A stretch of 64,000 bases of DNA from Acidobacteriota bacterium (GTDB taxonomy: Bacteria > Acidobacteriota > Thermoanaerobaculia > Multivoradales > UBA5704): contig JBDTZG010000028.1 in the NCBI GenBank assembly GCA_040005235.1, positions 6,940-70,939 on the forward strand, given 5' to 3'. Of the stretch, positions 23,250 to 64,000 are shown piece after piece (position 1 is the first letter of the stretch; each line of letters begins with the position of its first letter). Below the pieces are notes generated by a model. The model had not been told where the DNA came from, searched no databases, and saw nothing but the letters and a program-made list of their open reading frames with translations. Position numbers and translations under genes: made by a program.

Positions 23250-23331
23250 GGGCCGAAGGCCCATCCAATAATAGCCTAGGGCAACGCCCTAGGTTCCCGG
23301 TTCGCGCCCACCCCAAAAGGGCTGAAGGCCC
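23250..23331. repeat. REP-like hairpin cluster (3' side of the RAYT gene)
   Basis: GGGCCGAAGGCCC (23250-23262), CCTAGGGCAACGCCCTAGG (23275-23293), GGGCTGAAGGCCC (23319-23331). Confidence 0.65.
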
Positions 23332-23344
23332 GCACCATCCACCC

Positions 23345-23797: not shown

Positions 23798-23810
23798 GGT
23801 GAGTTAGGGC

Positions 23811-23893
23811 GGACTTTCAGTCCTTGGTGGGGTGCCAAACGGTCCTGTCCTGGGGCGTTGCCCCAGGCTTTTATAGGTTCGCGCCTTTGGCGC
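23811..23893. repeat. REP-like hairpin cluster (5' side of the RAYT gene)
   Basis: GGACTTTCAGTCC (23811-23823), CCTGGGGCGTTGCCCCAGG (23849-23867), GCGCCTTTGGCGC (23881-23893). Confidence 0.65.
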
Positions 23894-24046
23894 TGGCGGG
23901 ATCGTACACCTCGCCGACGGGTGGCGGCGACTCAGCTTCCTTAGCGTGTAATCCCCCTTACCGTTGGTGCCAAAGGGTAGACTGTGCTGAATCGGCACTG
24001 AGCACGGCCAGGAACCGCCGCAATCACCCTTCGATCTAAGCCAGGC

Positions 24047-48114: not shown

Positions 48115-48165
48115 GACCCCCGCCTTTGGGTCCAGCTATTTGGAGGGTGATTCTAGTCTGGTTGC

Positions 48166-48190
48166 TCCACTTCTGTCCAATTTTATCCAC
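48166..48190 (-). promoter_or_regulatory. putative MraZ operator: three direct pentamer boxes at 10-bp phase, overlapping a candidate -35
   Basis: The minus strand reads GTGGA-N5-TTGGA-N5-GTGGA (plus-strand tccac 48166, tccaa 48176, tccac 48186). A candidate -10 TAGAAT lies at 48150-48155. Confidence 0.5.
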
Positions 48191-48427
48191 TAGGGGCCAC
48201 CAGGACCCCGCGGTGGGCTCTGAAACCTCTTTCCGCAGGGTCGGCGCGGGCGGCAGAGTCGGCACGGGTGTTGAGTACCCGGTCCGGGCACGAGGCGTAC
48301 CTCAGGGGCTGTCGGCGCAAAAATTTGCGAAATTTGCCGCCCAGGGGTCCCGCTGTCTCGCATTGACGCGCCGAAGCACCGTAACATTGCAGAGACCACA
48401 CAATTGATTCGACCGAGGAGACCCCCC

Positions 48428-49888
48428 GTGTCGCAAAATCCTGTGCCGCTGCTTGCCGTGGTGTTGCGGAATCTCCGCGAGCGAGCCGGCTGGACCCAAG
48501 TCCGGCTCGAACGCGAGGCTCGCCTCAGCAAGGGATCGCTCTGCCGGCTGGAGAAGGGCAGCCAGACGGTCGATCGTTTCCTGCTCAATCGGCTGGCGAA
48601 GGTGATGAGAATCGCCGAGGGTGACGTGGAACAGGCGCTCGCAGTGCTGGAGCAGCTCCCGGCGGAGACCGGCGCCGGTTCGTCCGCGGACCTGCCGGTT
48701 CGCGACCGGCAGACGATCGAAACCGTCAGCGCGCGCTTTTCCCGCATGGTTCGCGAGAAGGCCCAGAACCGAATCGGGGGGAAGGTCCGCGCCCGGCGCT
48801 GGCGTCTCGACCGCGCGGCGGCCGCCGTGGCGTGGCAGCGGCTGCGCAAAATGCCCTCCGAGGATCGCCGGCTGATCGTTAAAGCGGTTGAGGCCTTTCA
48901 CACCTGGGCGGTGGTGGAACGGCTTTGCGAGGAGAGCGTAAGGGCGGCGGCCAGCGATATGGAGGAGGCCCGTAGGCTGGCGCAGCTTGCCCGGCAGGCC
49001 TCGACGGCCGCGAGCGGTGCCGAGCGAAGATATAAGTCGCTCGAAAATTACGCGGCGGCCTTCGAAGCGAACGCCTGGTGCGCTGCCGGCGAATTTCGGA
49101 AAGCCGAGCAGATTTTTGCCGAGGTCGATGCGCTCCATGGAGAAGGGCTGGACATCGCGGCAGTACCGGTCGATTGGGCCAGGCCACTGATCTTTCGAGC
49201 GGTGCTTATGATTTATCGGGCGAACCTCGATCCGGCATTGGAATGGCTGAACGAGGCGCTTTCGCTCACTCGCTCGCCGACCGTCAAGACTTGGGCGTTA
49301 ATCTGGCGAGCCGCTGTGCTCAAGCGGAAGCTCCAATTTCCCGCGGCGCTTGAGGAGCTGGAAAAGGCTCGGCCGTACGCCGAGCTTGCAGGCGATGCCC
49401 GGCTTCGATGGGCCATCGCCTTCAATGAAGCGGGTTATTTATGCGAAGCCGGCCATTTGGCGGAGGCTGCCGCCCGCCTTCCAGCCCTGAAGCTGGCAGC
49501 GTTGGAGCTCGGAGGAGCTCTGGATCGCCTGCGGCTCCGCTGGTTGACCGCGAGAGTGGCTGCTGCTTCAGGCCTGTTCCAGGAAGCCGCGACGAACCTC
49601 TCCGAGGTTTGGAATGCCTTTGCCGACCGGAACCTCTGGCTCGACGCGGCGATCGCGGTTCTCGAGCTGGCCAGCATCAACCTGGAGATGGGTCTGTCTG
49701 CCCAGGTCAAGAAGCTCGCCACGGCATCTGCTCACGTCTTCGCGGCGCAGACCCTGCCCGACCACCTTCTCGCGGCGGTTCGACTATTCTGGCAGGCCGC
49801 CCTTCAGGAAGCGGCCACTTCACAAATGGCGCGACAGCTGGTTGGGGACCTTCGCCGCGCCATGGTGGCAAACGCCGAAGCCTCCTGA
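48428..49888 (+). CDS. long XRE-HTH regulator with helical-repeat (TPR-like) C-terminal domain (R1)
   Basis: HTH LRNLRERAGWTQVRLEREARLSKGSLCRLEKG. Family signature FHTWAVVERLCEESV. About 300 aa of helical repeats. GTG 48428 has RBS GAGGAG; the track start is TTG 48404. Confidence 0.75.
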   Translation: MSQNPVPLLAVVLRNLRERAGWTQVRLEREARLSKGSLCRLEKGSQTVDRFLLNRLAKVMRIAEGDVEQALAVLEQLPAETGAGSSADLPVRDRQTIETVSARFSRMVREKAQNRIGGKVRARRWRLDRAAAAVAWQRLRKMPSEDRRLIVKAVEAFHTWAVVERLCEESVRAAASDMEEARRLAQLARQASTAASGAERRYKSLENYAAAFEANAWCAAGEFRKAEQIFAEVDALHGEGLDIAAVPVDWARPLIFRAVLMIYRANLDPALEWLNEALSLTRSPTVKTWALIWRAAVLKRKLQFPAALEELEKARPYAELAGDARLRWAIAFNEAGYLCEAGHLAEAAARLPALKLAALELGGALDRLRLRWLTARVAAASGLFQEAATNLSEVWNAFADRNLWLDAAIAVLELASINLEMGLSAQVKKLATASAHVFAAQTLPDHLLAAVRLFWQAALQEAATSQMARQLVGDLRRAMVANAEAS

Positions 49889-49907
49889 AGTCGTCGTCTC
49901 GCTTGGG

Positions 49908-50195
49908 CTAGGTCCCACACAGACCGTTCGGGTTGATCTCGCAGCCGACTTCGCCGAGAGGAGGCTTACTTCTCGGGCGACCGGAGTCGGAAGCACTGCG
50001 TCCGTCTGGGCTTGCGCCGCGGCGCCCGCTGGGCTCGATCTCGCAACCGCTCGGCGCCCACAGCGCGGAAAAGAATCTCCCGGCTTTGGCGAGCAGGTTC
50101 CCGAGATCCCACGGTGCGGCGGAGGCCTGGGTCGGGAAGGCGAGGACCACGACGAGAAGCAAGAGCGGCAGACGGCGGGGCGACGAAGCGGACAT
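49908..50195 (-). CDS. small secreted Cys-loop repeat peptide (pepA, 95 aa)
   Basis: Signal peptide MSASSPRRLPLLLLVVVLAFPTQASA, then FFSALW, module GCEIEPSGRRGAS and the terminal GCEINPNGLCGT. Paralogous to 58620-58952. Confidence 0.65.
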   Translation of the reverse strand: MSASSPRRLPLLLLVVVLAFPTQASAAPWDLGNLLAKAGRFFSALWAPSGCEIEPSGRRGASPDGRSASDSGRPRSKPPLGEVGCEINPNGLCGT

Positions 50196-50395
50196 GACCG
50201 ACTCCTATTCCGAGGGGACCGGCGCCGCGGCCTCCATGGCCGAACGGGCACCCTGCGAGTTCTTCCAGGCGCGCCTGGGCGAAGCTTGGACGCAAAATTT
50301 TGTGCTGCCAGGCGTACGGTGGGGTCTATCTTAGGAGCAAGCCCCGCCCTGCACGCTCTTTCGATACGATTCCCTCCAGAAACTCGGGAGGTGAC

Positions 50396-51220
50396 ATGAA
50401 CGACGCCTTGGATCGCCGCGCGGCAGGCTTGGTGATGCAGTTGTTTCGCTTCATGGCCGGCCGCCACCAGCACGACCTGAGCGAACGGACCGGGATCGAC
50501 ATAAAGCGGATTTCGCGTTACGAGCAGGGAAAAGTTCTGCCTCTTCGGCCGACGCTCGAACGACTCGCTGCGGGCGTCGGCGTCTCCGCGACCCGGCTCG
50601 ATCAGCTTCTCGCGTTGATTCGCACCGTGTGCGCCGAGGGCGAGGCGGCGACCGCCCAAAAGGAGCACGCCACAGCAGACCCCGACGAGTCCGATTGGCC
50701 GGACGATCTCGCCGAGCTGGCGGCGGAGATCGCCGAAGACCTACAGCCCGAGATTTACCAAGCCCTGAAGGAATTGAACGCCGAGCTGAACGCGCCGCCT
50801 CCGCCACTCGCCCCGGAAGCGGCGCGCGCCCAGGCTCGGGAGCTATGGGGAAGGTTCGAACCCTTGCCGGATCGCGTTCGCCGCCTGGTGATCGAACATG
50901 GCAAGGAGTACCAAACCTGGGCCTTTTGCGAACGGCTCTGCGAAGCAAGCCTCGACGCCGGATCGCGCGCGCCGGAGGACGGTCAGGCCTTGGCCGACCT
51001 GGCGCTCTCGGTCGCCGAGGCCGCCCAAGGGTCCGACGTGCTGCGCCAGCGCCTGACCGCCTTCGCCCTCGCCTGCGCCGCCCACGCGGATGTCCTCGCC
51101 GGGGACTCGGAAGAGGCCGCCGAGAAGCTGGGCCGGGCCAAGGCGCTCTGGACGGCCGGGGACGGCACCGACGATCTCGACCTCGGCCAGATCGCCGATC
51201 TGGTGCCCGCCGACTCGTAA
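50396..51220 (+). CDS. short XRE-HTH regulator paralog (R2)
   Basis: RBS GGGAGG lies before ATG 50396. HTH HQHDLSERTGIDIKRISRYEQG. Signature YQTWAFCERLCEASL. It lacks the long C-terminal repeat domain. Confidence 0.7.
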   Translation: MNDALDRRAAGLVMQLFRFMAGRHQHDLSERTGIDIKRISRYEQGKVLPLRPTLERLAAGVGVSATRLDQLLALIRTVCAEGEAATAQKEHATADPDESDWPDDLAELAAEIAEDLQPEIYQALKELNAELNAPPPPLAPEAARAQARELWGRFEPLPDRVRRLVIEHGKEYQTWAFCERLCEASLDAGSRAPEDGQALADLALSVAEAAQGSDVLRQRLTAFALACAAHADVLAGDSEEAAEKLGRAKALWTAGDGTDDLDLGQIADLVPADS

Positions 51221-51229: not shown

Positions 51230-51631
51230 TCAGTTCGGCGCCCGCCGACTTGCGTCCGGCGGAAGCTCCGGCGGCGGCGGGCCGAGACGGCGCTCCAGGT
51301 CGGCGATCTTCTGTTCGAGATCTTCCGCCAGGATTTCGAGAGCCTGACAGAGCCGGTCCTCTTCCTCGGTCACCGTCGAGAGCCGCCGGGTCGCGGCGAG
51401 CCCGGCGAACGCCTGCTTTGTATGCCAGAGGTCGTCGATGCCGGCGCGCGTTCCCGCCTTGAGCCACGGTTCTCCGAACCCCGAGCCGTCTTCCAGCTCC
51501 AGCGCTTCCTCGGCGATCTTTTCGCAGGCATCCTGGACGCGTTGGCGCAAACCCGGCCGGGTGAAATGGACCAGGACCGACTCGCGGAACGGCGCCATCT
51601 CTCTCCAGCGGCGCTTGATCGGGTTGGTCAT
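51230..51631 (-). CDS. hypothetical cytoplasmic protein (S1)
   Basis: 133 aa, with a 4-nt overlap with the upstream S2 gene. No recognisable motif. Confidence 0.5.
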   Translation of the reverse strand: MTNPIKRRWREMAPFRESVLVHFTRPGLRQRVQDACEKIAEEALELEDGSGFGEPWLKAGTRAGIDDLWHTKQAFAGLAATRRLSTVTEEEDRLCQALEILAEDLEQKIADLERRLGPPPPELPPDASRRAPN

Positions 51632-52062
51632 CCTGGGGATGCCCGTCGCTCAGTCCGCACGGCGGCCCGGTGCCGGCCCAGGCGTCTCTCCTGCACCAGA
51701 CCCAGGAATGCGTCCCGATTCGCGGCCCCATGGGTCATCAGCGCCGCGAAGACCCGAAGGTTCAGACGGGCACCTTCCGGGGGCGGTGTACCTTCCAAGA
51801 GGGCGAGCAGTCGGGCGGCCAGCTCCGGCAAGATGCCCCCTCGCCCCTGGCGCAACAATACGGTTCCCAGCTCGATGTAGGCGTCCGCCGCTGCCATCAC
51901 CTCGCCCGATGCGCGCCAGGTTCCCGCGGCGCGGCCGAACAGTCGCGCCGCCTCTTCGAGGTTCCCATCGTCCCGCTCGCGCTCGGCCCGGTCGAAGATC
52001 TCTCCGGCGGCCCGCCGCAACTCGCCGGGTGCGAGGGGAGAGGCCGGACTTACAGAGGCCAT
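51628..52062 (-). CDS. hypothetical helical protein (S2), resembles the C-terminal module of R1/R3
   Basis: 144 aa. ...DDGNLEEAARLFGRAAG...AADAYIELGTVLLRQG...LAARLLALL... parallels the R1 and R3 C-termini and paralog S3. Confidence 0.55.
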   Translation of the reverse strand: MASVSPASPLAPGELRRAAGEIFDRAERERDDGNLEEAARLFGRAAGTWRASGEVMAAADAYIELGTVLLRQGRGGILPELAARLLALLEGTPPPEGARLNLRVFAALMTHGAANRDAFLGLVQERRLGRHRAAVRTERRASPG

Positions 52063-52499
52063 TCCATTCCTTTTCTGTGCTTCCGGACGTCCGCGAGCAA
52101 CTCGCCTAGTAACGGCGAGCTCGGCGGGGTGATCTCGAGCAAGAGCAAAAGGTTGGAAAAAAGCTCGATTTCCGGCGGCGCCACGGCGAGCGTCGCCGGC
52201 TTGGCGGCGAGCCAGTCCGGCAGGTCGACACGTTCAAGGCGATAGACCGCGGCCAGCGAGAGCGCCGCTAGCCCTTCGAGCCAGGGTTGCTCCGCTTTGC
52301 CGAAGGCATGGACGGCGAGAATAAAACTCTCTTCTGCCTGGGACAGGTTGCCCGCCGCCGCGGCGCGCTCGGCAAAATCCATCGAGCGCCAAGCCAACCG
52401 GAAAAAAGCCGGATGCGCCGGTTCCTTAGCCGGCGCATCCGCGGGCCCTGCGAGCGCGAGAGGGGGTGCGGGTCGCCCGCAGGGGAAAAAGGAGTCCAT
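52050..52499 (-). CDS. hypothetical helical protein (S3), paralog of S2
   Basis: 149 aa. ...AAGNLSQAEESFILAVHAF...LAALSLAAVYRLE... has the same layout as S2. 13-nt overlap with S2. Confidence 0.5.
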   Translation of the reverse strand: MDSFFPCGRPAPPLALAGPADAPAKEPAHPAFFRLAWRSMDFAERAAAAGNLSQAEESFILAVHAFGKAEQPWLEGLAALSLAAVYRLERVDLPDWLAAKPATLAVAPPEIELFSNLLLLLEITPPSSPLLGELLADVRKHRKGMEWPL

Positions 52500-52694: not shown

Positions 52695-53810
52695 CTAGGG
52701 CTGCAGGCCGCCGTTCCACGAAGTGTCCTTGAGCAGATCGGCCCAATTCACGTCGGCGCTCAGCACATTGAATTCGTCGCTGCCGTCCGAGAAGACGTTG
52801 AGGTGTGCCGCCCGCCGAAAGACCTCCTCGCCTTGAATTTCGAAGCCGGGCCGTAGCGGCGGCAAGATGTAGAGGCCCATCCACGGACTACCGGTTGGGT
52901 TACAGCCCGTCTGGCCGGAAGCGGTGCAGAAGGGGAGCGCCGTGATTTCGCCCGTCGTCAAGCGTCCCTGGGTATCGGTGTGCAGGCGCAGCAGGAAGGG
53001 GATTTCCAGGTCACTGTAGACACACACTCCGTCGTCATCGCAGGAAAGGGCAGAGTCATAGGCGTCAATCCGGTAAGTCAGCGGCTCCTCCGCCCGGTAG
53101 AGAGCGGTCTTGTAGGAAATAAAGGCGCAGAACGGATTGGGAATGGGTTCCGCCAGGCAGCCTGTCGGCCGAACCGTCCGCGCGAGGATCGAGTAGACCT
53201 TGAGGTCAAAGTCGGTCACTTCGGTATGGCAGGGAGAGAGTAGGTCGTCGACGGTCAAACCGCGTCCCGCGGTGTCCGCGTGGTCCGCCTGCGCGTCCTG
53301 GAGAGTGGTGATCCGAATCGAATTCTTCGGCTGAAAAGGGTCTGGCGGCTCCCGGGACAGGATGAGATCCACGAGCATCGAGAACCGGGTCGTCCCCTCG
53401 AGATTCGAAGACGCATCCCGCCGAACCAAGGTGGCCTGGGGCCGGCGATCCCTTCGGGGGTTCAAGAAGTCCTCGTCCTCGCGAAGGATCAGGTCGAACG
53501 CCAGCTGTTTCTCCTGTCGCTCGCGGTCGCCTTGAACCGTGGTGTGTCGCAACTGGCTGGTGCTGGCCAATCCTCTGTAGGTGCCGCCATTGGCGCTCGA
53601 CCGCCAGAGGAGGAGGCTCGACTCCCCGTAGGAAACCCCCATGCGGTGCAGCAACCTCCCCATTTGCCGCTCTTCGCAGGCGACCTGCTCGGACGTGAGG
53701 GGGCGGCCGAAGGGCTGGGCCACAGCATTGCGTACCGCACATGCGCCGAAGACCAGGGCCACGGCCCAAGCCGGCACCCGCCACCCTACGGCTGCAGGCC
53801 GCCGTTCCAC
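52695..53810 (-). CDS. secreted Cys-containing protein of unknown function (P1), tandem paralog of P2
   Basis: Collinear with P2 over the full length (QPFG.PLTSEQVACEERQMGRLLHRMGVSYGE ... NWADLLKDTSWNGGLQP). GTG start at 53810; an alternative is GTG 53777. Confidence 0.7.
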   Translation of the reverse strand: MERRPAAVGWRVPAWAVALVFGACAVRNAVAQPFGRPLTSEQVACEERQMGRLLHRMGVSYGESSLLLWRSSANGGTYRGLASTSQLRHTTVQGDRERQEKQLAFDLILREDEDFLNPRRDRRPQATLVRRDASSNLEGTTRFSMLVDLILSREPPDPFQPKNSIRITTLQDAQADHADTAGRGLTVDDLLSPCHTEVTDFDLKVYSILARTVRPTGCLAEPIPNPFCAFISYKTALYRAEEPLTYRIDAYDSALSCDDDGVCVYSDLEIPFLLRLHTDTQGRLTTGEITALPFCTASGQTGCNPTGSPWMGLYILPPLRPGFEIQGEEVFRRAAHLNVFSDGSDEFNVLSADVNWADLLKDTSWNGGLQP

Positions 53811-54889
53811 GAGGTGTCCTTGAGCAGGTCCGCCCAGTTGACGTCGGCACGTAGAATGTTCAAGTCAGGAAAGGCAACCGAGAAAAGGTTCAGGTGGGCC
53901 GCACGCCGAAAGACTTCCTCTCCCTGAACCTCGATGCCGGGTCTCAGGGGAGGTAAGACGTAAAGGCCCATCCAAGGACTGTCCTCCGGGCTGCATCCGG
54001 TTTGGCCCGACGCTGTGCAAAACGGCAGCAGCGAGACCTCCCCGGATGCCAACCGGCCTTGGGCGTCGGCTTGGATGCGAAACAGCAGTGAATTCTGCTC
54101 GTCGCTGTAAACGCACACGCCGTCTTCGTCGCAGGACAACGAGGAGAGATATACGTCGGCCCGATAGGTCAGCGGCTCCTCCGCGCGGTAGAACGCGGTT
54201 TTAAAGGAAATGAATCCGCAGACCGGGTTGGGAATGGGTTCCGCCAGGCAGCCCGTCGGCCGCACCGTCCGGGCGAGGATCGAGTAGACCTTTAGGTCGA
54301 AATCGGTCACCTCAGTATGGCAGGTATTCAAAAGGTCGTCGACGGTCAGACCGCGTCCGGCGGTGTCCGCGTGGTCCTCCGGCGCTTCCTGGAGGGTGGT
54401 GATCCGGATCGAATTCTTTGGGTGGAAAGGGTCGGGCGGCTCCGGGGACAGGATGAGATCTACGAGCATCGAGAACCGGGTCGTTCCCATCGGGTCGAGG
54501 TTCGACGCCGCGTCCCGCCGGACCAGCGTCGCCTGCGGGCGGCGTTCCCGCCGGGGGTTCAAGAAGTCTTCATCGGCGCGGAGAATCAGGTCAAACGCCA
54601 GCTGTTTCTCATCGCGCATCCGGATGTCTACGGTCGTCGTAGGATCGAAATAAAGGTGGTCCGTACTGGCCAAGCCTCTGTAGCTGCCGCCGTTGGCCGC
54701 CGATCGCCAAAGGTAGAGGCCAGCCTCGCCATATGAGACCCCCATACGATGAAGCAATCGCCCCATCTGGCGCTCCTCGCAGGCGACCTGCTCGGACGTG
54801 AGGGGGCTGCCGAAGGGCTGGGCCGCCATAATTCCCGGGGCGATGATTACCAGGAAGAGAATCGCGAACAACGCGCTTTTGGGTTTCAT
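53786..54889 (-). CDS. secreted Cys-containing protein of unknown function (P2)
   Basis: ATG 54889 with signal peptide MKPKSALFAILFLVIIAPGIMAAQ. The track ORF's N-terminal extension is rejected. Confidence 0.75.
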   Translation of the reverse strand: MKPKSALFAILFLVIIAPGIMAAQPFGSPLTSEQVACEERQMGRLLHRMGVSYGEAGLYLWRSAANGGSYRGLASTDHLYFDPTTTVDIRMRDEKQLAFDLILRADEDFLNPRRERRPQATLVRRDAASNLDPMGTTRFSMLVDLILSPEPPDPFHPKNSIRITTLQEAPEDHADTAGRGLTVDDLLNTCHTEVTDFDLKVYSILARTVRPTGCLAEPIPNPVCGFISFKTAFYRAEEPLTYRADVYLSSLSCDEDGVCVYSDEQNSLLFRIQADAQGRLASGEVSLLPFCTASGQTGCSPEDSPWMGLYVLPPLRPGIEVQGEEVFRRAAHLNLFSVAFPDLNILRADVNWADLLKDTSWNGGLQP

Positions 54890-55098
54890 AGCTTCCCCGC
54901 TGAACCTGTCTTCTGTTGGACCTGGAGAACGATGTCGAAGGAATAGAACGGCGAAACGATCTCGCAACTTCCCCCGTTGCAGGTTTTGTGGATGGGATCC
55001 CAATTGATGGTCTGGACTGCCGTCATGGTTCCCGTTGCCGGCGTGACCCACTGGACCTCGAACCGATCGGCCGTCGGTCCGAGGTTCAAGAGCGTCAA
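54886..55098 (-). CDS. small protein X, translationally coupled to P2; the true N-terminus is probably further upstream
   Basis: ATGA overlap with the P2 start. The frame stays open and protein-like up to about 55320, but the first ATG/GTG/TTG in frame is TTG 55098. Confidence 0.5.
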   Translation of the reverse strand: MTLLNLGPTADRFEVQWVTPATGTMTAVQTINWDPIHKTCNGGSCEIVSPFYSFDIVLQVQQKTGSAGKL

Positions 55099-55321
55099 GC
55101 GGTCTTGGTATTTCTGCGCCAGCCAGATCCGCGCGTCGAAAGCGTTGCGCGGGAGAAATATCGGTTTGGCGCTCGGAGACGTGGACTCTTTGGGGCATCC
55201 GTTCGCAGTGAACTCCGCCTCGGGCGCGTTCGATGCCGTGCTGGCCGCGCAGCGGATCGTGCTGTGGTGTAGATAGAGCAGGAAAAGCCGGTTCGGCTCC
55301 GGTCTCCGACCTGGATCGGCA

Positions 55322-56821
55322 TCAATCGGTATCCGTCGGAGATTGAGGGCCTTGATGTAGGTCGGGTCTCGCAGCGCTATTGGGCAGCCCTCCAGACCAA
55401 GCTGACCGGGACGAGGTGAGGCGCCCGAGCGGCAGCGCGTTGACGAATTTCTTGAGTACGCCGAGTTGGCGCCGAATGGTCGCGGGGGTGTTCGGGTCGC
55501 CTCCGGAGAGATATCCGAAATGGTCGTAGGTGGCGCCCTGGTCGAACAGAAACTCCCAGGCTTCGGCGCGCGCCGGTTCGGCGAGCTTTTCTGTCAGGGC
55601 GCCGTTGGTATGGGCGCGGGTGCCGCTCTTGCCTCCGACATCTGGGTTGCCGATGAACTGACCGGCGCCTTTGGTCGTAAACGGCTGTACCGCCACCAAA
55701 TGCCCGCCGGCGGCCAAGCGCGGGTATTTCGCTTCCTGAAAGGTGACCTGGGCAATCATGTCGCGCTGCCACTTGGCGACCTCGAGGGGATCGACGGTCT
55801 GGGCCTCCGGCTCGTTGGCGATCTCCCAATAGACGGTGTCGAAGCACCAGAGTTCTTGGACCGTCCACTCGATCACTTTGGCCTGGGCCACGCGCATGCG
55901 CTCGTTCGTCAGGGCCTCCTGGGTGCCTCGCGTGTCGTGGGTCACGAAGTACTCGGGCTTTGAGAACTTCACCGTCTCGAACGTCCCGTCCGACTTCGGC
56001 ATCATCCCCTTGCCGCCCCAGGGACCCTGGGAGAAGAAATCTCCCTCGAACGGCGCGAAGATGGTCACTTCGACGATCATCTTCCTCGGGTCCTGGGCGT
56101 AGGCCACGACATCGCGCAAGCGTTGGAAATACCGCGTGTTCGGCTTGTCCAGGCGCCAGAACGGGTAGGCGTTGGCCGGGAAGTTGGCGCAGTCGGGGCT
56201 CGCCACGGCGCTCGGGCAATAGAGGAACGGGACGTTGTTCGGGTTTTTCTCTCCGGCCAGGGCGATCCAGAGGCGGAGCTTGTTCAGGCCCGCTTCGAAG
56301 GCGGCTTGGATCGTCGTGGGGTAGTTGGTCCAGTTGCATTTGTCGGAGGAGAGTTCGAGGTGGCAGCCGTTGTCAGCCGAGACGCCGACGAGGGTCTGGA
56401 TCGTGTTGCGGTACGAAAAGTAGCGCGAGGCGAAAGGCAGGGCGGCGGTCGTTTTGCCGATCTTGATCGGGGTGATCGTCTGCGTGATGTTGCCGCAACC
56501 GGTGGCGGAAATCGTGGGATCGGCCGGAACGTCGGGGTCGGTGCCCAGCAGCTCGGGCGGATAGAGATCCTCCGAGTCGAGCGAATTCGGGTCGCCGTCG
56601 TAGGGGAGCAAGTCGTCGCCGAGGGTCCACAGCTCGGCGGGCAAGCTGGGGTCGGTGGTCGAGCCACCGTCGCCGAAGACGGAAGAGAGGGGTGGCTCTT
56701 CTTCGGGTCCGGGTGGGGGTTGGGCGGGAAGGGGGGCACCGACCGAGAGGAACGAAAGAAAGATGAAGGCGAGGGTCGCACGGTGGCAGAGGGATAAGAG
56801 TAGCGAGCGAGTTCGGTCCAC
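55322..56821 (-). CDS. secreted glycoside hydrolase clan GH-A (GH5-like) candidate
   Basis: Signal peptide, a Pro/Asp-rich linker and a TIM-barrel-like domain with YWEIANEPE (the NEP acid/base motif). GTG start at 56821 with RBS AAAGGA. Confidence 0.5.
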   Translation of the reverse strand: MDRTRSLLLSLCHRATLAFIFLSFLSVGAPLPAQPPPGPEEEPPLSSVFGDGGSTTDPSLPAELWTLGDDLLPYDGDPNSLDSEDLYPPELLGTDPDVPADPTISATGCGNITQTITPIKIGKTTAALPFASRYFSYRNTIQTLVGVSADNGCHLELSSDKCNWTNYPTTIQAAFEAGLNKLRLWIALAGEKNPNNVPFLYCPSAVASPDCANFPANAYPFWRLDKPNTRYFQRLRDVVAYAQDPRKMIVEVTIFAPFEGDFFSQGPWGGKGMMPKSDGTFETVKFSKPEYFVTHDTRGTQEALTNERMRVAQAKVIEWTVQELWCFDTVYWEIANEPEAQTVDPLEVAKWQRDMIAQVTFQEAKYPRLAAGGHLVAVQPFTTKGAGQFIGNPDVGGKSGTRAHTNGALTEKLAEPARAEAWEFLFDQGATYDHFGYLSGGDPNTPATIRRQLGVLKKFVNALPLGRLTSSRSAWSGGLPNSAARPDLHQGPQSPTDTD

Positions 56822-57041: not shown

Positions 57042-57060
57042 GAGGAAACCAGGTTTCCTC
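57042..57060. promoter_or_regulatory. perfect 19-bp palindrome in the divergent GH5-like/R3 intergenic region
   Basis: GAGGAAACC-A-GGTTTCCTC, about 100 bp upstream of the R3 start. Confidence 0.4.
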
Positions 57061-57158: not shown

Positions 57159-58613
57159 ATGCCCAAGGTGGACCTGCCGCCGACGAATGCGGCGCTATTG
57201 ATTTTGCGCATCCTGTGTCGCCTGACACAGGATGAGTTCGGCGAGCTGACCGGCATGAAGAGCCGGATCGTCGAGATCGAGAATGGCCGGTATGTCCTTA
57301 AGCGCGCCGAGCTCGAAGATCTGGTGGAGGAGCTCAAGGTGTCGGCCTACGCGGTGCCGGTCGCCCTCGGCCTATCGGAGCTGGTGTTGCCGTCGACCGA
57401 CAAGACCCCCCACCCCTGGGAGGCGACGCCCGACGCGCGGTTTCAGGCCGAGCGCGCGACCCTCGAATCGTCCGCCATCGTGCGCCGTCTGTTCCTCGCC
57501 GAAGCGCGCGCGGAGCGCTACGCGGCGGACCGCGAGGAGGCCGAGCGCCTCTGGAAGCTGCTTGCGCCGCTCAATCGCGACCGGCGGCGGGTGATGGCCC
57601 GGATCGTCGATTTCTCGACCTGGGCGGTGGTCGAGCGCCTCTGCATCGAGAGCCTCAGGGGAGCGCCTCGGGATCCCGGGGCCGCCCGCTCGCTCGCCGA
57701 GCTGGCCGTTGAGGTGGCCCAGAGGATTCCGCCGCTGCCCAGGTTCAGCGATCGGGTGGAAGGGTACGCCCAGGCCCACTTGGGCAACGCCTTTCGAGTC
57801 GGGAACGACTTTGACGAGGCGGTTCGCGCTTTCGCGCTCGTCGCGAAACTTTGGATCGAGTTCCTGCCGGGCGAGGCCTGCCCGTTTGACGTGACGCTGA
57901 TCCCCGACCTAGAAGCTTCTCTGCGCCGCGATCAGCGTCAATTCTCCTTAGCGTTCGCTGGGCACGACCGGGCTCTTTCCTTCGCTGTCGAGGATGCGAT
58001 CCGCGGGCGCATCCTCCTCAATAAGGCAGTGACATTCGAGCATTCCGGCGATCCAGTTGGTGCGGTTGCAACTCTCAGCGCTGCTCAGCCTCTTATCGAC
58101 ACGAGCAACGAAACCCGGCTGGGTTGTGTCGCGCGTTTCAACTTGGCGGTCAACCTCCTCCATCTTGGAAACGCCTTAGATGCCGAGCCGCTGATCGCCG
58201 AGGTGCGGGCGCTTGCGATCGAACAGCGAAACGAGCTTGACCTGATCCGGGTCCTTTGGCTCTCCGGCCGCCTTGCCGCCGCGCAAGGAGATCGGGCGAA
58301 GGCGATGGTCTCGATCGATGACGCGGCCTGTCGCTTCGCCGAACAGGGCCTCGGATATGACGCCGCACTGGCGGTGCTCGACCTCGCGGGGCTGCTCTTG
58401 GAAGAAGGCAACCCGAGAGAGGCAGCCCGGAGGGTGGCCGAGGTGCAACCCACTTTCCACGTGCGAAACATTCACCGGGAGGAACTGGCGAGCCTGGTTC
58501 TGTTCCTCCAAGCCGTCGAAACCGAAGCGGCGACCGCCGCGCTGGCGCGCGCGGCGGCCGAGGCCTGGAGGTTGTTCGGCACGCCCGTTCCTTTCGGAAG
58601 TCTGGCCGACTGA
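57159..58613 (+). CDS. long XRE-HTH regulator with helical-repeat (TPR-like) C-terminal domain (R3)
   Basis: HTH LTQDEFGELTGMKSRIVEIENG. Signature FSTWAVVERLCIESL. The C-terminal repeats are collinear with R1. Confidence 0.75.
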   Translation: MPKVDLPPTNAALLILRILCRLTQDEFGELTGMKSRIVEIENGRYVLKRAELEDLVEELKVSAYAVPVALGLSELVLPSTDKTPHPWEATPDARFQAERATLESSAIVRRLFLAEARAERYAADREEAERLWKLLAPLNRDRRRVMARIVDFSTWAVVERLCIESLRGAPRDPGAARSLAELAVEVAQRIPPLPRFSDRVEGYAQAHLGNAFRVGNDFDEAVRAFALVAKLWIEFLPGEACPFDVTLIPDLEASLRRDQRQFSLAFAGHDRALSFAVEDAIRGRILLNKAVTFEHSGDPVGAVATLSAAQPLIDTSNETRLGCVARFNLAVNLLHLGNALDAEPLIAEVRALAIEQRNELDLIRVLWLSGRLAAAQGDRAKAMVSIDDAACRFAEQGLGYDAALAVLDLAGLLLEEGNPREAARRVAEVQPTFHVRNIHREELASLVLFLQAVETEAATAALARAAAEAWRLFGTPVPFGSLAD

Positions 58614-58619
58614 AATGAA

Positions 58620-58952
58620 CTACTGGCCGCAGCGACCCTCTGGGTCGACGACGCAACCCGCGTCGCGAAGGATCGGCGCCGGGGCACTCGACGAACCGCA
58701 GCGGCCGTAGGGATCGAGGCTGCAGCCCACGTCGCTGAGGATCGGCACCGGGGCGCTCGACGGGCCGCGGCCGCCGTGGGGGTCGAGGCTGCAGCCCTCC
58801 TCCTCCCAGAGGGCCGAAAGAAACGACCAGCCGCGGGCGAACAGGTCGGGGAGGGTGCGATCGAGCGGCAAGGCGCCGGCCGGGAAGGCACTGAGGAGGA
58901 AGAGGGCTAGCAGAGCGACGGCGAGGGCGAGGTGACGCTTCGGTTGGGGCAT
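58620..58952 (-). CDS. small secreted Cys-loop repeat peptide (pepB, 110 aa)
   Basis: Signal peptide MPQPKRHLALAVALLALFLLSAFPAGA, then FLSALW and three modules: GCSLDPHGGRGPSS, GCSLDPYGRCGSS and the terminal GCVVDPEGRCGQ. The modules are encoded by 69-bp tandem DNA repeats. Confidence 0.7.
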   Translation of the reverse strand: MPQPKRHLALAVALLALFLLSAFPAGALPLDRTLPDLFARGWSFLSALWEEEGCSLDPHGGRGPSSAPVPILSDVGCSLDPYGRCGSSSAPAPILRDAGCVVDPEGRCGQ

Positions 58953-59028
58953 GGCGGTGGGCTCCTGGTCAGCCCGGGAACCTCCGGCCGGGATGGCCGG
59001 CGGCCCGGTACGAAGGGGTTCAGAGGGT

Positions 59029-59046
59029 AACCCAAGTTTTTGGGTT
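59029..59046. promoter_or_regulatory. AT-rich inverted repeat between pepB and R4
   Basis: AACCCAA-GTTT-TTGGGTT, with perfect 7-bp arms, 22 bp upstream of the R4 ATG. Confidence 0.4.
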
Positions 59047-59067
59047 CATTTTTCTCTTGGAGGGATC

Positions 59068-59955
59068 ATGGAACGGAAATCCGGCAGAACGCGAGACGTT
59101 CGCTCAGGACTCAGTGCGGCACCCACCCCTGGCGCCGCCGCGAAGGGGGGAAGGGCCGCGGCCAAAGCGCGGGACGCCGAGTACTCGGCTCTGTTGGTCC
59201 GGTATATGGATGCGACGGTCGGCCCGCGGCACGACCAGTTCGCGGAGTTGGTCGAGATCAGCGCGGCGCGGGCGAGCCTCTACCGCTACGGCTACAAGGT
59301 GCCCCGGCCCGAGACGAAGGCCCGTTTCTCCGGCCGGGTCGGGCTGCCGATCGAATGGTTCGAGGCGATGACCGCCGACTCGTTGTTTCTCCGCGGCAAA
59401 AGCTCAAAGCCGGCGGGAAGTACTCCCGCAGCCCTGGCGGAAGACCTCTCCCGCCGGCTCGCGGGCCAGCTCGCCCCGCGGTTCGCGGCGTTGCGCAGCG
59501 TAGCCCCCGCCGCCCCTCCTCCTCCTCCTCCTTCGCTCGAACGGGCGGCGGCCGATCGAGCCGAGGCGGACCGGCATTGGACCGAAATCGAGCCGCTCAC
59601 CGCCGCCGAGCGCGCCCTCGCGGTGCCGGAGATCCCGAGGTTCCACTCCTGGGCGCTGGTCGAGCTGCTCTGCGGAAAAAGTGTAGAGGCCGCGCCCGTG
59701 TCGCCGGCCGAAGCGCTCGCCCTCGCCAAGCTGGCCATACGACTGGCCCGCCGGGTCCAAGCAAGCCAAGGATTTCGCGACCGCCTGATGGGCTACGCCC
59801 TCCTCCACTCGGCCGCCGCACTCAAGAGCCTGAACGACCTGCCGCGAGCCCGGGAAGCCCGCGCGCGCGGGCTACGGCTTTTCGCGGCGGGGCGGAAGGA
59901 GGATCCGGGGTTGCTGGATGAAGCGATCGCCGAGGGACTCGCGTCGTCGTCGTAG
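59068..59955 (+). CDS. short XRE-HTH regulator paralog (R4)
   Basis: RBS GGAGGG lies before ATG 59068. HTH-like HDQFAELVEISAARASLYRYG. Signature FHSWALVELLCGKSV. Confidence 0.65.
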   Translation: MERKSGRTRDVRSGLSAAPTPGAAAKGGRAAAKARDAEYSALLVRYMDATVGPRHDQFAELVEISAARASLYRYGYKVPRPETKARFSGRVGLPIEWFEAMTADSLFLRGKSSKPAGSTPAALAEDLSRRLAGQLAPRFAALRSVAPAAPPPPPPSLERAAADRAEADRHWTEIEPLTAAERALAVPEIPRFHSWALVELLCGKSVEAAPVSPAEALALAKLAIRLARRVQASQGFRDRLMGYALLHSAAALKSLNDLPRAREARARGLRLFAAGRKEDPGLLDEAIAEGLASSS

Positions 59956-60023: not shown

Positions 60024-60584
60024 TCAGGGTGTGGATGCCTGAGCGAGGAAGGCACCAAAGACATCAGTAGGCACGTGGTCGATCTGGGCGCCGGGGCTGT
60101 TTGCGGCTTCAGAGAAGAAGTCCTCTATCGCTTGGACCGACCGAGCGAACGCATCGCTGCAAATTGTTGGAAATGCAGCGCCGAAGCCGAAGGTTTTTGT
60201 CACTTTGCTCGTGCCTTTCCTACCGAACCAAGTGACCGCGGAGACGAAGACTTCGCCTTGTCCTGGAACGTCCCGATAAGCGCAGTGGCCACGCTCGGAA
60301 CCGAATCGGTTCTCGGACAGGGCCTGCTGTAGCCGGCGGACGGCATCCGAAGTACCCCGGGCTCGAATCAGGGTCGTTTGGCCGGGCGACCGCTGGGTGC
60401 TGATCAACAGGCCATCGCGAAAGATGACGTAGTCGATATTTGTCTTGAAGCCGGTCACCTCGTCGTCGACGTGGGCCGTGCGACGAACGAGGTAGCTTTC
60501 GGGTGCCGGCGTCTGAGCCAGCGCCAGCGTGGGCAGGATCAGTGCCAGGGCATAGAGCCAGAAAACGGGTCTAGTTGCTCTCAT
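60024..60584 (-). CDS. secreted protein of unknown function (Q1), tandem paralog of Q2
   Basis: ATG 60584 with RBS GGAGG. Signal peptide ...LALILPTLALAQ. Near-identical to Q2 over 186 aa. Confidence 0.7.
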   Translation of the reverse strand: MRATRPVFWLYALALILPTLALAQTPAPESYLVRRTAHVDDEVTGFKTNIDYVIFRDGLLISTQRSPGQTTLIRARGTSDAVRRLQQALSENRFGSERGHCAYRDVPGQGEVFVSAVTWFGRKGTSKVTKTFGFGAAFPTICSDAFARSVQAIEDFFSEAANSPGAQIDHVPTDVFGAFLAQASTP

Positions 60585-60707
60585 ACGACACCTCCGGGGC
60601 GAGTATTCCACGGAACTACACGAACAATACCGGTTTGCCGGTTACAGCTTGTCAGTGGAGCGAGACATCCGGTTGTCGCCCAGGATTCTTACGGCGAAGG
60701 GACAAGC

Positions 60708-60745: not shown

Positions 60746-61306
60746 TCAGGGTATGGATGCCTGAGCGAGGAAGGCACCAAAGACATCTGTAGGCACGTGG
60801 TCGATCTGGGCGCCGGGACTGTTCGCGGCCTCAAAGAAGAAATCCGCGATCGCTCGGACCGAGCGAGCAAATGACTCGCTGCATTGGGACGGGAATGCGG
60901 CGCCAACGCCGAAAGTTTTCGTCACCTGGCTGGTTCCCGTTCTTCCGAACCAAGTTACCGCTGAGACAAAGACTTCGCCTTGCCCCGGGAAGTCGCGATA
61001 CGAGCAGCGATTACCCGCGGTGCCGAACCGGTTCTGGGAAAGCACCTGCTGCAGCCTTCGGACGGCATCTGCCGTGCCCCGGGCTCGAATCAGGGTCGTT
61101 TGGCCCGGCGACCGTTGGGTGCTGATCAATAGGCCGTCTCGAAAGATGACGTAGTCGATATTTGTCTTGAAGCCGGTCACCTCGTCATCGACGTGGGCCG
61201 TCCTCCGGACGAGGTAGCTCTCGGCTGCCGGTGTTTGTGCCAGGGCCAACGTTGGCGGGTTCAGCCCCAGGGTACAGATCCAGAAAAGGTAACTTCTCGC
61301 TCTCAT
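60746..61306 (-). CDS. secreted protein of unknown function (Q2)
   Basis: ATG 61306 with RBS GGAGG. Signal peptide and the same sequence family as Q1. Confidence 0.7.
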   Translation of the reverse strand: MRARSYLFWICTLGLNPPTLALAQTPAAESYLVRRTAHVDDEVTGFKTNIDYVIFRDGLLISTQRSPGQTTLIRARGTADAVRRLQQVLSQNRFGTAGNRCSYRDFPGQGEVFVSAVTWFGRTGTSQVTKTFGVGAAFPSQCSESFARSVRAIADFFFEAANSPGAQIDHVPTDVFGAFLAQASIP

Positions 61307-61332
61307 TCGCCACCTCCAAGCCACAAAGTGCT

Positions 61333-62958
61333 CTAAGGTACTACCTGAACGATACCAGTTTGCCAGTTACAGCTCGCACCCGCAGGGCCAAAGTTCTCAC
61401 CGGCAAGCCACAGGCTCCCGCCAGATGGATCAGCCTGCGCACCTGAGTAGTCGCCCGTTTTGCCTGAGCTTCCCCCTCTTGAGCAGGTTCCCGGCCGCAG
61501 GACGTTCAGGGGTGAGAAAGCCGCAGAGCCCGAGACCCTCGTGAGCCAGCCCGAACCGTGATGCAAGCTAGCCGACCCCATGTGCAGCGCCAGCCCTATT
61601 CGGCCGCTGTTCGTCACAGCGATCGAGGGCATCCAGAGGAAGTTATTAGCCGACAAGCCAACGGTGGTTTGCTCGGCGAGGGGCGCCAGAAATCCGCTGG
61701 TCGTAGGTGCAAGGTTGAAGCGGAGGACCCGGAAGCAAGCTTCATTGTTTCCAGCGGCGATCTGGCATCCGGTAGTCTGAACAGCCCAGATGGAATCACC
61801 GATTCCCGCGACTTGGAGGATTCGGGAATCCCCCGTCTCCAGAGAGATTCCGGCCGGTTGGGGGGCGTCGGGAGGCGTCGTATACATCCGCAGGCCCAGA
61901 ACTTCGGTCATCTCTAGGCGCGGAGCCGTCGTTGCGCCATCGCGAATCCTCCAGACCCGATAACCCTTCGCGGGCGATCCCTTCGCGCTGATCAGATATC
62001 CGGAGGTGCCGCCGGTGGCGCTGGGGAGCGTGTAGTGCTGCACGGGCTGGAGAGTTTGGGCGTTCGCGGCTTCAAACGCGGCAAGCGGGAGAGGGCGGAA
62101 GGTCACAGCGGCAGGAAGTGCCGGGCAAGTTGCGACGTTATTGACCAAAGCTGCCTTGGCTAGTATCCGGAGAAGTGGATATCCACGCGATACATTGGCG
62201 TTATCCACCACGAACTGATTCGTCGTCACCATCACCACGTCTCGCCCCACGCCCAGGCTCGGGTAGTCGGCAATCGCCTTGTCGGCCGTGGTGATGTCCG
62301 TTCGGGCCTCCGTGGAATACCGGCACCACTGTGCGGCATCCAGGCCTGTCGGGTTGGCGCTCCGCGACACGGCGAGAAACAGCTTTTGCGGGTCGCCGTT
62401 GACCACCTTCTCCAGGACGACGACAAAGAAACGCTGGGAGTTGCGATCGTAGAAGACCTTGGGGTCGAAGACCCCCGGCGACTCGGGGATTCCGAAGAAT
62501 GCCGCGGTGGTCCGTGTCACACGGATCGTTCCGTCCGTATTGAACAGCCGCAGGGCGGCGTTGACCGCTTCGAGGACTCGATCGGTGCTGCGGGCGATGC
62601 CGACGTCTGGAGGCGTCTTCTGGCCGCCGGCCAGGTAGTCGAGCCCCGGAAAGCTCGCCGCGAGTGTCGCCGTGCCGGAGCGCGACGCAAGAGCCAGCAC
62701 CACATCGGGCGGCTCGGCGTTGGGATCTATGAGCGCCGCTTCCTGCGCCTTCGTTAGTTCCTCAGGCGTCAAGCCGAAGGGTTCCGGCATCTCTTCGGCC
62801 ACCGAATCGCCGGGGGCCGGGTCGGGGTAGTCCACCTCGGGCAGCGGCTCGACCGGCGCTTCCATCTCCGGTTCGAAGATTTCAACGTCCTGGCTGCGCC
62901 CGGGCCAGGCGGCGAGGACGATTGCGACGCAGAAAATACCGAGCACTCTCGAATACAT
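61333..62958 (-). CDS. large secreted protein of unknown function (Y)
   Basis: Signal peptide MYSRVLGIFCVAIVLAAWPGRSQ and an acidic Pro-rich linker. The body is beta-rich and has no motif I can name. Confidence 0.65.
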   Translation of the reverse strand: MYSRVLGIFCVAIVLAAWPGRSQDVEIFEPEMEAPVEPLPEVDYPDPAPGDSVAEEMPEPFGLTPEELTKAQEAALIDPNAEPPDVVLALASRSGTATLAASFPGLDYLAGGQKTPPDVGIARSTDRVLEAVNAALRLFNTDGTIRVTRTTAAFFGIPESPGVFDPKVFYDRNSQRFFVVVLEKVVNGDPQKLFLAVSRSANPTGLDAAQWCRYSTEARTDITTADKAIADYPSLGVGRDVVMVTTNQFVVDNANVSRGYPLLRILAKAALVNNVATCPALPAAVTFRPLPLAAFEAANAQTLQPVQHYTLPSATGGTSGYLISAKGSPAKGYRVWRIRDGATTAPRLEMTEVLGLRMYTTPPDAPQPAGISLETGDSRILQVAGIGDSIWAVQTTGCQIAAGNNEACFRVLRFNLAPTTSGFLAPLAEQTTVGLSANNFLWMPSIAVTNSGRIGLALHMGSASLHHGSGWLTRVSGSAAFSPLNVLRPGTCSRGGSSGKTGDYSGAQADPSGGSLWLAGENFGPAGASCNWQTGIVQVVP

Positions 62959-63129
62959 GATCCCTCCGTAGGCAAAAAATGACGTTTCTGTGGTCCTGTA
63001 TAAAAGAGAGAGTGCAAACCGAAAAAGAAGCGAGACAGCCGAAGTGTGGATTGGTACGAAACACCCTGCCGGCCCGCCGTGTCCGCCTCCGCCAGGGATC
63101 GGCGAAAAGAGAGGCCTTCATGGCGGCGA

Positions 63130-63891: not shown

Positions 63892-64000
63892 GGCCCATCA
63901 ATATAGATTGATGCAGTTTGGGTTGCAAGAGCCTCGCCGCCGGGGCGCACATTCCTGCGCAGCGGGGTGACTGGCACTGAAAATGCCCGGAAGGTCGGCG

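Follow-up and report, generated by a model that had tools for sequence, protein, structure and literature searches.

Peptide quorum sensing by way of an intracellular receptor built of tetratricopeptide repeats (TPRs) is regarded as a Gram-positive (Bacillota) trait, whereas Gram-negative bacteria are thought to use small molecules (PMC10075063). The operational signature of such RRNPP systems comprises a pro-peptide of 10–100 residues, a Sec/SPI signal, a receptor of 250–500 residues, TPRs within that receptor and direct adjacency of the two genes (PMC10075063). We have analysed a 64,000-nucleotide stretch of DNA from an Acidobacteriota bacterium of the Thermoanaerobaculia (GCA_040005235.1, contig JBDTZG010000028.1, positions 6,940 to 70,939; the whole stretch is called the window here). 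It holds two three-gene cassettes, each made of a long helix-turn-helix (HTH)-TPR regulator, a small exported peptide gene and a shorter HTH regulator, and all five elements of the signature as defined in PMC10075063 are found in them, except that one of the two pro-peptides, with 110 residues, exceeds the 100-residue limit. On balance, we lean towards the reading that each triad is a self-contained peptide-signalling circuit, RRNPP-like by analogy, in a Gram-negative acidobacterium.

The genes of the two cassettes are listed below. L003, mentioned here and later, is a locus from another metagenome-assembled genome (MAG), the closest relative, and served as the reference for allele comparisons.

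48428–49888, + strand: R1, GTG start as annotated with GAGGAG before it, 486 residues; an XRE-HTH plus TPR-like candidate peptide receptor, cytoplasmic
49908–50195, − strand: pepA, a 95-residue pro-peptide annotated by NCBI as a hypothetical protein
50396–51220, + strand: R2, ATG start, 274 residues; a truncated R1 paralogue
57159–58613, + strand: R1′, the copy-2 HTH-TPR regulator, 484 residues
58620–58952, − strand: pepB, a 110-residue pro-peptide with three loops, 6 nt away from R1′
59068–59955, + strand: R2′, the copy-2 short regulator, 295 residues, 87.5% identical to its 296-residue L003 orthologue

The stop codons of R1 and pepA converge, leaving a 19-nt gap (49889–49907), and pepA and R2 are divergent with a 200-bp control region between them (50196–50395). 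The two gene ends, the gap, the R2 start and the size of the control region had all been given in an earlier note, made from the letters of the window, and every one of these coordinates checks; the R2 start at 50396 is also backed by orthologues of 271–277 residues. The frame and end of R1 given there are likewise borne out, but its TTG start at 48404 lies eight codons upstream of the annotated GTG at 48428, in the same frame. The note had also seen the order and orientations of the 48404–51220 module recur at 57159–59955, and we find there the same gene order and paralogous genes, with identities of 30% between R1 and R1′ (E 3e-31), 36% between pepA and pepB (E 1e-11) and 34% over 109 residues between R2 and R2′ (E 1e-8). 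Since, in addition to these copy-to-copy matches, a central 'TWAxxERLCExS' region is common to R1 and R2 (E 2e-11), all four regulators would descend from one ancestor and, judged by these comparisons, the two cassettes are true paralogues. For R2′, the most likely start is the ATG at 59068 and not 58951, because GGAGGG precedes it and the 296-residue L003 orthologue matches.

RRNPP pro-peptides usually carry the active peptide at the C-terminus. The likeness of the present cassettes to the RRNPP(A) systems (Rap-Phr, NprR-NprX, PlcR-PapR, Rgg-SHP, PrgX-cCF10 and AimR-AimP) begins with the adjacency of a Sec-exported pro-peptide gene and a TPR receptor of 250–500 residues, a range that R1 and R1′ (486 and 484 residues) both fall into, and it extends to the N-terminal XRE HTH of R1, as in NprR, PlcR and AimR, to a conserved peptide unit at the C-terminus and to the presence of several such paralogous cassettes in a single genome. 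Rap-Phr has documented cases of pheromones in tandem repeats (PMC11343458), and the tandem repeat units of the pepA/pepB family resemble those of Phr in this respect. The cassettes differ from RRNPP systems in lying in a diderm, non-Bacillota phylum, all named homologues and loci being Acidobacteriota (Thermoanaerobaculia/Holophagales), and in having a 9-residue disulphide loop as the peptide unit where RRNPP systems have a linear 5–10-mer. Moreover, the peptide gene stands between two paralogous regulators, with additional receptor fragments (s144 and s149) and a small protein (s133) nearby; no Opp importer was found here among the window genes scanned or those listed in related loci; and the signalling function is a putative one.

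In the Rgg2/Rgg3-SHP system of Streptococcus pyogenes, two paralogous receptors are antagonistic on shared operators, and convergent and divergent gene orientations both occur among Rgg/SHP groups. Our cassettes likewise have two paralogous HTH regulators per peptide system and one palindromic operator at more than one promoter, but R2 is truncated here (274 residues) and full-length in distant clades, and its competition or heterodimerisation with R1 is something that we infer. The agrBDCA (Staphylococcus) and comQXP (Bacillus) loci combine a hypervariable signal and sensor segment with conserved flanks. A hypervariable signal and ligand-sensing segment within conserved bounds, with alleles common to lineages, is also what the present locus has; however, agr and comQXP use membrane histidine kinases and modified peptides (thiolactone, isoprenyl), whereas the candidate receptor of the cassette is a cytoplasmic HTH-TPR protein and the cassette encodes neither a kinase nor a modifying enzyme. 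A last likeness is to multi-core precursors of ribosomally synthesized and post-translationally modified peptides (RiPPs) and other repeat precursors (cyanobactin PatE, fungal Kex2-processed peptides), which share the conserved N-terminal region, the tandem hypervariable cores and the conserved spacers; in contrast to their cytoplasmic leader, the cassette peptides have a Sec signal peptide, genes for maturation enzymes are not found alongside, and apart from the Cys pair no constraint is evident. Taken together, these comparisons indicate that the cassette is RRNPP-like in logic and not a demonstrable member of the RRNPP family. It departs from RRNPP systems in the chemistry of its peptide, in having two regulators, in its additional receptor fragments and in its phylum, and no family library names any component.

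The two pro-peptides can be divided as follows.

pepA: signal peptide at residues 1–26 (...ASA/AP cut), conserved pro-region (..FFSALW), a decayed loop GCEIEPSGRRG and the C-terminal loop GCEINPNGLCGT (49911–49946)
pepB: loops CSLDPHGGR (decayed), CSLDPYGRC and CVVDPEGRC

The terminal sequence of pepA, GCEINPNGLCGT, had been stated correctly in the earlier note. An AGGAG Shine-Dalgarno sequence lies 7 nt upstream of the pepA ATG, and this AGGAG is conserved among relatives. Neither pepA nor pepB has a match in Pfam or NCBIfam, and a profile search through 5.8 billion proteins collected 117 peptide clusters, every one 'hypothetical' and none with a Pfam domain. When 1.84 billion representatives were searched exhaustively with a hidden Markov model, 1,943 proteins scored at E <= 1e-3 and 784 of these at E <= 1e-10; the 1,943 are peptide clusters at 50% identity. 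Family members are 64–143 residues long (mean 109). That the module contains a small exported peptide, as the earlier note had it, agrees with the predicted Sec-type signal peptide of this family: a charged n-region, a 12-residue hydrophobic core (median Kyte-Doolittle value 2.8) and small residues at −3/−1 were found in 115 of the 117 members, as scored by a home-made rule set and not by SignalP. The conserved pro-region that follows closes with a hydrophobic LWxFLxSLW-like motif and leads into 1–5 tandem units with the consensus [DE][NA]G-C-x-[IL]-D-P-x-G-R-C, separated by Pro/Ala-rich spacers.

Each unit contains a 9-residue Cys-to-Cys loop, C-x-[IL]-D-P-x-G-x-C, and the last loop sits at the C-terminus, with only 1–4 residues after the last Cys in 107 of 115 members. 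The variety of these loops is large (306 distinct 9-mers among the top 141 representatives), and elsewhere in the six-frame translation of the window the loop motif matches just once, in no identified gene. In the orthologues adjacent to the division and cell wall (dcw) cluster the internal loops decay, the first loop of pepA having no second Cys and that of L003 having neither, and the C-terminal loop is kept in the aligned loci (six peptides), L008 showing one variant. This internal decay with retention of the terminal loop argues that the repeats are semi-independent units, of which the terminal one is essential.

In order to follow the cassette beyond the window, loci with R1 relatives were collected from a scan of one genome per species, which gave 18 loci in six MAGs, 3–5 per MAG, all of them from Thermoanaerobaculia/Holophagales. 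R1 has 35 homologues, and those with a source name all belong to Thermoanaerobaculia/Acidobacteriota; homologue names also point to a Thermoanaerobaculia-type acidobacterial MAG as the source of the window. The earlier note had staked its proposal on the synteny of regulators and peptide genes in relatives, and a pepA-family open reading frame (ORF) does adjoin the R1 homologue in 18 of 18 reference loci. In 17 close loci the peptide 3′ end is 2–22 nt away from the convergent R1 3′ end; the exception is L022, whose peptide gene has an R1-like gene on either side. With few exceptions, R2 is there as well wherever the contig permits, and nearly all of the 18 loci have it. Reverse look-ups that took seven distant peptides as starting points found a convergent R1-like gene 4–44 nt away in all seven cases and a divergent R-like paralogue in six, and L028 has instead a divergent 178-residue gene without similarity to the R regulators. 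The divergent paralogue, the equivalent of R2, is a full-length HTH-TPR protein of 454–503 residues in four of these distant loci and truncated (132–198 residues) in two. The full-length forms imply that the ancestral arrangement was regulator, peptide, regulator, and that R2 here is a truncated derivative.

The surroundings of the loci are unrelated, including the dcw cluster (window and L003), purNM/pntB (L001) and Mtr-type cytochromes (L004), and such wholly different flanking genes imply that the triad moves or duplicates as a unit. From the recurrence of its gene order, the cassette is conserved and not a chance association. In distant loci, other small divergent genes also stand beside the R1-like regulator (L023 8352–8615 and L024 8094–8255; L023 8092–8355, L024 9331–9618 and L025 8210–8866). 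One of these small genes encodes an H-x4-C-x2-C motif that recalls zinc-binding anti-sigma factors, and another a conserved 'EIRTVI' motif.

For the regulators, R1 scores above the Pfam HTH_31 threshold, and the Pfam and NCBIfam matches are otherwise only generic HTH or weak TPR ones. Identification as a defence system or phage element was tried with PADLOC and PHROGs and rejected, as these gave generic HTH matches only. An AlphaFold2 model of R1 built from 28 sequences (predicted local distance difference test, pLDDT, 84; predicted template modelling score, pTM, 0.73) consists of an HTH at residues 8–75, a low-confidence loop, a long helix at 106–140 and helical hairpins up to residue 478, forming a TPR-like superhelix of ~350 residues. 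When this model was compared with known structures by Foldseek, the best match was RapJ-PhrC (template modelling score, TM, 0.67), followed by RapF, RapH, pLS20 Rap, PlcR and AimR; among bacterial structures, the closest neighbours of R1 are the peptide-bound Rap, NprR, AimR and PlcR. The identities to the Foldseek matches are 7–13%, and a search of the R1 profile against PDB sequences gave only generic TPR and HTH matches and none to the receptor domains of Rap, Rgg, NprR, PlcR, PrgX or AimR. Such low identities with only generic sequence matches mean a likeness of fold and architecture, not demonstrable homology.

In the R2 model (pLDDT 76), a disordered linker rich in acidic residues and Pro joins the HTH to a helical domain modelled with confidence (140–251), which corresponds to the initial ~3 hairpins in the receptor domain of R1. 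Against the PDB, this model with its disordered linker matched ComR, PrgX and 4ryk weakly (E >= 0.02, TM 0.2–0.28), and good matches were found for the HTH alone. A cysteine in the 'ERLCEES' helix (C167 of R1, window ~48926–48928) is present in R1, R2, R1′ and R2′ and in at least 90% of the R1 family. The receptor residues N215 and N333 are near-invariant as well. A redox or mixed-disulphide role is conceivable for it, given the Cys-containing candidate ligand.

The palindromic elements near the promoters of the two cassettes are as follows, none of them being assigned a strand.

48316–48329: operator O1, CGCAAAAATTTGCG, a palindrome 112 bp upstream of the R1 start codon
50265–50278: perfect palindrome CCAGGCGCGCCTGG in the pepA/R2 control region, a possible second operator, partly conserved in orthologous intergenic regions
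50291–50304: operator O2, CGCAAAATTTTGTG, halfway along the control region between pepA and R2
57042–57060: inverted repeat GAGGAAACCAGGTTTCCTC upstream of R1′, in a block identical to the relative, a candidate operator
59031–59044: copy-2 operator CCCAAGTTTTTGGG, a palindrome 24 bp before the R2′ start

The O2 palindrome is the best-conserved block of the pep/R2 intergenic alignment, with the consensus CGCAAAATTTTGCG. Allowing at most one mismatch, CGCAA-N4-TTGCG occurs within 320 bp upstream of R1 in 14 of 18 modules, mostly at −112, and in the pep/R2 region of 11 of 19 modules, most of them at ~−116 from R2 (range −105 to −155). No perfect CGCAA-N4-TTGCG was found in the remaining ~225 kb of locus DNA. 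The copy-2 palindrome CCCAAGTTTTTGGG, which occurs in L003 too, has the same 5-4-5 geometry as copy 1 with another arm base. With a palindrome before R1 and another between pep and R2, the cassette thus has the cis-elements of an autoregulated switch. In the distant loci L022–L026 the CGCAA-N4-TTGCG palindrome is not conserved. A GTGACAC-centred motif stands instead upstream of the R1-like genes in L023–L026 (for example TTCGTGACACGAA in L024 at 7945), and this replacement suggests operator turnover between clades.

At the R1/pepA junction there is no terminator or unusual structure (fold versus shuffled sequences, z = +0.73). The earlier note had proposed antisense or transcriptional-interference control from the near-abutting 3′ ends; apart from the convergent geometry, nothing was found to support this proposal. 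A promoter and terminator scan of the region gave a sole good sigma-70-like match, the mraZ promoter (48150–48179, − strand, TGGACA-18-TAGAAT), which is also the left edge of the following block.

48200–50700, no strand: hypervariable island, 51–65% nucleotide identity over most of its length versus L003

The exceptions within the island are the R1 HTH end and the 5′ third of R2 (70–82%), and the minimum of identity is reached in the R1 TPR domain and pepA. Its flanks are far closer to L003, with 93–99% DNA identity on the left (dcw) side and mostly 88–96% on the right (92–96% from ~50700). The mraZ protein is 100% identical with a synonymous divergence (dS) of 0.09, and rsmH has a dS of 0.145, versus 1.55 for R1, the TPR part of which is saturated; in the loops of pepA, the amino-acid identity is 38%. 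Copy 2 is ~90% identical to L003 overall and has exactly two dips, one at R1′ codons ~256–330 and one in the loop region of pepB. In the R1′ patch the DNA identity is 60%, and the proportion of synonymous differences (pS) rises up to 0.96 with a nonsynonymous proportion (pN) of 0.30, versus a pS of 0.1–0.25 nearby. The pepB loop region has 73% DNA and 67% amino-acid identity, versus 88% amino-acid identity for its signal peptide and pro-region, and the 115-bp pepB/R2′ intergenic region is 97–99% identical. Since pS is raised along with pN, these dips point to imported divergent alleles, that is, mosaic recombination, and not to point-wise positive selection alone.

Five other module pairs give a like ranking, in which the HTH, leader and R2 are conserved and the TPRs and loops divergent, and among orthologues R2 is 72–85% identical versus 58–74% for R1. 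In addition, TPR identity tracks the type of the terminal loop and not genome kinship: the window, L001 and L005, which share CEINPxG, are 74% identical in the TPRs, and L003, which has CVILPDGRC, is 52% identical to the window despite being the closest genome. Across 18 modules, loop identity correlates with that of the TPRs (rho 0.54) and with that of the HTH (rho 0.44), both significantly; because TPR and HTH identities are themselves correlated (rho 0.88), the loop–TPR correlation is not independent evidence. Within the cassette, the R1 TPR domain and the peptide loops diverge fastest and are inherited together. The convergent gene order places the TPR and loop codons within ~1.3 kb of each other, so that they can be exchanged as one specificity cassette. 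The island, the most telling of our results, resembles pherotype variation, a pattern that rests on one close genome pair and on trends in the five module pairs.

Three further genes next to R2 belong to the accessory part of the locus.

51230–51631, − strand: s133, a conserved small cytoplasmic protein, RRWxExAPFRExVL...
51628–52062, − strand: s144, a separate protein paralogous to the C-terminal ~105 residues of the R1 receptor domain
52050–52499, − strand: s149, a second, more divergent member of the s144 family

The s144/s149 family aligns to residues 377–482 of R1 (hhalign probability 87%, E 4e-6). Most loci have relatives of s133 and s144 next to the cassette, as a rule divergent from R1; s149 is also present in L014 and not in L003. 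No match was found for s133 in Pfam, NCBIfam, PADLOC or PHROGs, and nothing meaningful in the PDB by profile; s149 has no Pfam or NCBIfam match.

Between s149 and R1′, a ~4.4-kb insertion versus L003 is filled by secreted-protein genes (52695–56821). They encode two tandem paralogous secreted proteins (52695–53810 and 53786–54877, − strand), 80% identical and without a Pfam family, and a 499-residue secreted protein (55322–56821, − strand), also without one. Relatives of both families adjoin cassettes elsewhere (L017 6536–9407, L004 14363–16144 and L021 2722–3501), and the inserted secreted proteins may be regulated outputs. Directly downstream of R2′ lie two tandem small secreted paralogues (60024–60611 and 60746–61324, − strand; 82.5% identical), which have no family match and are not found in L003 at that position. 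The next gene (61333–63117, − strand) encodes a 594-residue protein without a family match, and fragmentary matches of 62–68% to it occur right after R2 in L001 (10726–11243), possibly as the remnant of a shared neighbour. In L003, a LanC-like gene and a luciferase-like monooxygenase (15105–16316) stand just downstream of copy 2, and neither is found in the window or other loci. An assignment to a RiPP cluster was rejected, the LanC-like gene of L003 being the only maturation-enzyme gene and the window and the other annotated loci having none. Farther along the window, 63130–63897 (− strand) encodes an ArsR-type HTH fused to a low-molecular-weight phosphotyrosine phosphatase/arsenate-reductase domain. 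The window as a whole is a chromosomal segment with ~66% GC, and the stretch 22001–24000 is locally low (GC 0.57). An Acido-Lenti-1 small RNA (Rfam RF01687; 23249–23293, − strand; 39.6 bits versus a gathering score of 37) lies inside this low-GC stretch, in which a coding-bias scan listed no ORF.

How such a cassette might work can be pictured as follows. After export, the pro-peptide would be processed to one or several small peptides, closed by a disulphide, which would accumulate and then re-enter the cell. There, they would bind to R1, on the concave side of its TPR superhelix, and alter the occupancy of the CGCAA-N4-TTGCG operators by R1, a switch that would feed back on pep, R2 and R1 and control the s133-s144-s149 operon and perhaps also the secreted-protein genes nearby. 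R2, which has no distal TPRs, is probably a peptide-blind competitor for the operator or a heterodimer partner of R1, by analogy with the antagonistic Rgg2/Rgg3 pair; s144 and s149, as free receptor C-terminal subdomains, would probably modulate receptor oligomerisation. The paralogous cassettes of each genome, together with divergent alleles at each locus, would then serve as orthogonal signalling channels, or pherotypes. The RNPP-type architecture that the earlier note had proposed stands to this extent: the signature, the fold neighbours, the synteny and the co-diversification of TPRs and loops all speak for it, but sequence homology to RNPP receptors was not found. More tentatively, and with a little less than even confidence, we propose that these cassettes are the first family of peptide pheromones with cytoplasmic receptors outside the Gram-positive Bacillota, widespread in Acidobacteriota, with tandem disulphide-loop peptides, two paralogous regulators per signal and many mutually orthogonal pherotypes kept by recombination.

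Several observations weigh against a signalling circuit of this kind. The host is a diderm, with a TonB-dependent receptor and an outer membrane protein (OMP) barrel encoded at 10502–13369, so that a peptide of 1–2.5 kDa has three membrane passages to make, two through the outer membrane and one through the inner, and no Opp/Dpp importer, dedicated protease or exporter was seen among the scanned window genes or as a recurring neighbour in related loci. The disulphide loop would be reduced in the cytoplasm, and the loops of one precursor do not agree at their variable positions, as one would hardly expect if they made a single ligand of high specificity. The Foldseek list is also mixed with LGN/Pins and TTC7B, the likeness of fold thus reaching generic TPR proteins. 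Co-variation of receptor and peptide can also arise by co-inheritance of adjacent DNA, and all genomes are MAGs.

The main alternative, though a rather unlikely one, is that the peptide is an output and not a signal, namely a secreted effector under the control of R1 and R2, which would sense another cue. It could be a disulphide-stabilised peptide with antimicrobial or bacteriocin-like action, a loop resembling protease inhibitors, a binder of metals or surfaces, or the precursor of a RiPP whose modifying enzymes are encoded elsewhere, and its hypervariability would reflect an arms race. A conserved leader and pro-region followed by hypervariable tandem cores is the classic layout of a multi-core RiPP or toxin precursor; disulphide loops fit extracellular stability, TPR sensors such as MalT bind non-peptide ligands, and the lack of an importer in the window genes scanned and in related loci, the LanC-like gene near copy 2 in L003 and the secreted-protein genes that recur beside some modules all agree with such a role. 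However, the cassette has no conserved association with a modifying enzyme, an immunity gene or an exporter, and LanC occurs in one locus, not in the window. An effector also leaves unexplained why the divergence peaks of TPRs and loops coincide while the HTH, the signal peptide and, in copy 2 at least, the operators are conserved, and why TPR similarity tracks loop type.

The cost of release and re-uptake across a diderm envelope, the need of the paired cysteines for periplasmic disulphide formation, and the nearly invariant Cys (C167 of R1, in the ERLCEES helix) of R1, R1′, R2 and R2′ would be accommodated by a private sensor of the envelope state, in which oxidative folding or proteolysis of the periplasmic peptide reports redox or protease status to R1 and R2 by re-import or through a membrane component. 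We consider this improbable, since pherotype-like alleles and several orthogonal paralogues per genome fit cell discrimination and not a housekeeping stress sensor, and no membrane component is conserved in the loci. Finally, the regulators could be XRE repressors of a mobile element, defence system or toxin–antitoxin module with an incidental small ORF, as the weak matches of their HTH domains to phage repressor and defence-associated HTH models and the multi-copy cassette in varied genomic contexts might suggest. These matches, though, are to generic HTHs only, and integrase, toxin, phage and defence genes were not found nearby; furthermore, the small ORF is part of a strongly constrained family of ~1,900 clusters that has a signal peptide and a Shine-Dalgarno sequence kept among relatives. 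This last explanation is highly improbable and can be taken as largely refuted.

The peptide-signalling circuit is thus the reading that we favour, and the expectation of the earlier note that an RNPP-analogous system would be new in this lineage agrees with the literature, in which our search found no paper linking RRNPP to Acidobacteria. The search on Thermoanaerobaculia and quorum sensing returned only microbiome surveys, unrelated to such a system, and the ten top-ranked results on HTH, TPR and signalling peptides made no mention of Acidobacteria. The system is directly testable, as it offers defined peptides, receptor domains, 14-bp operators and natural allele pairs. Even if the peptides were effectors, the C-x-[IL]-D-P-x-G-x-C tandem loops would be a new class of bacterial disulphide-loop peptides. 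If the signalling circuit is true, ~1,900 clusters of 'hypothetical' secreted peptides would gain a name and a testable role, and one would have to ask by what route small peptides pass an outer membrane both ways. Such a circuit would also extend an RRNPP-like mechanism to a major diderm soil phylum, the Acidobacteriota, and mean that genetically encoded peptide 'languages' exist in this abundant, largely uncultured group.

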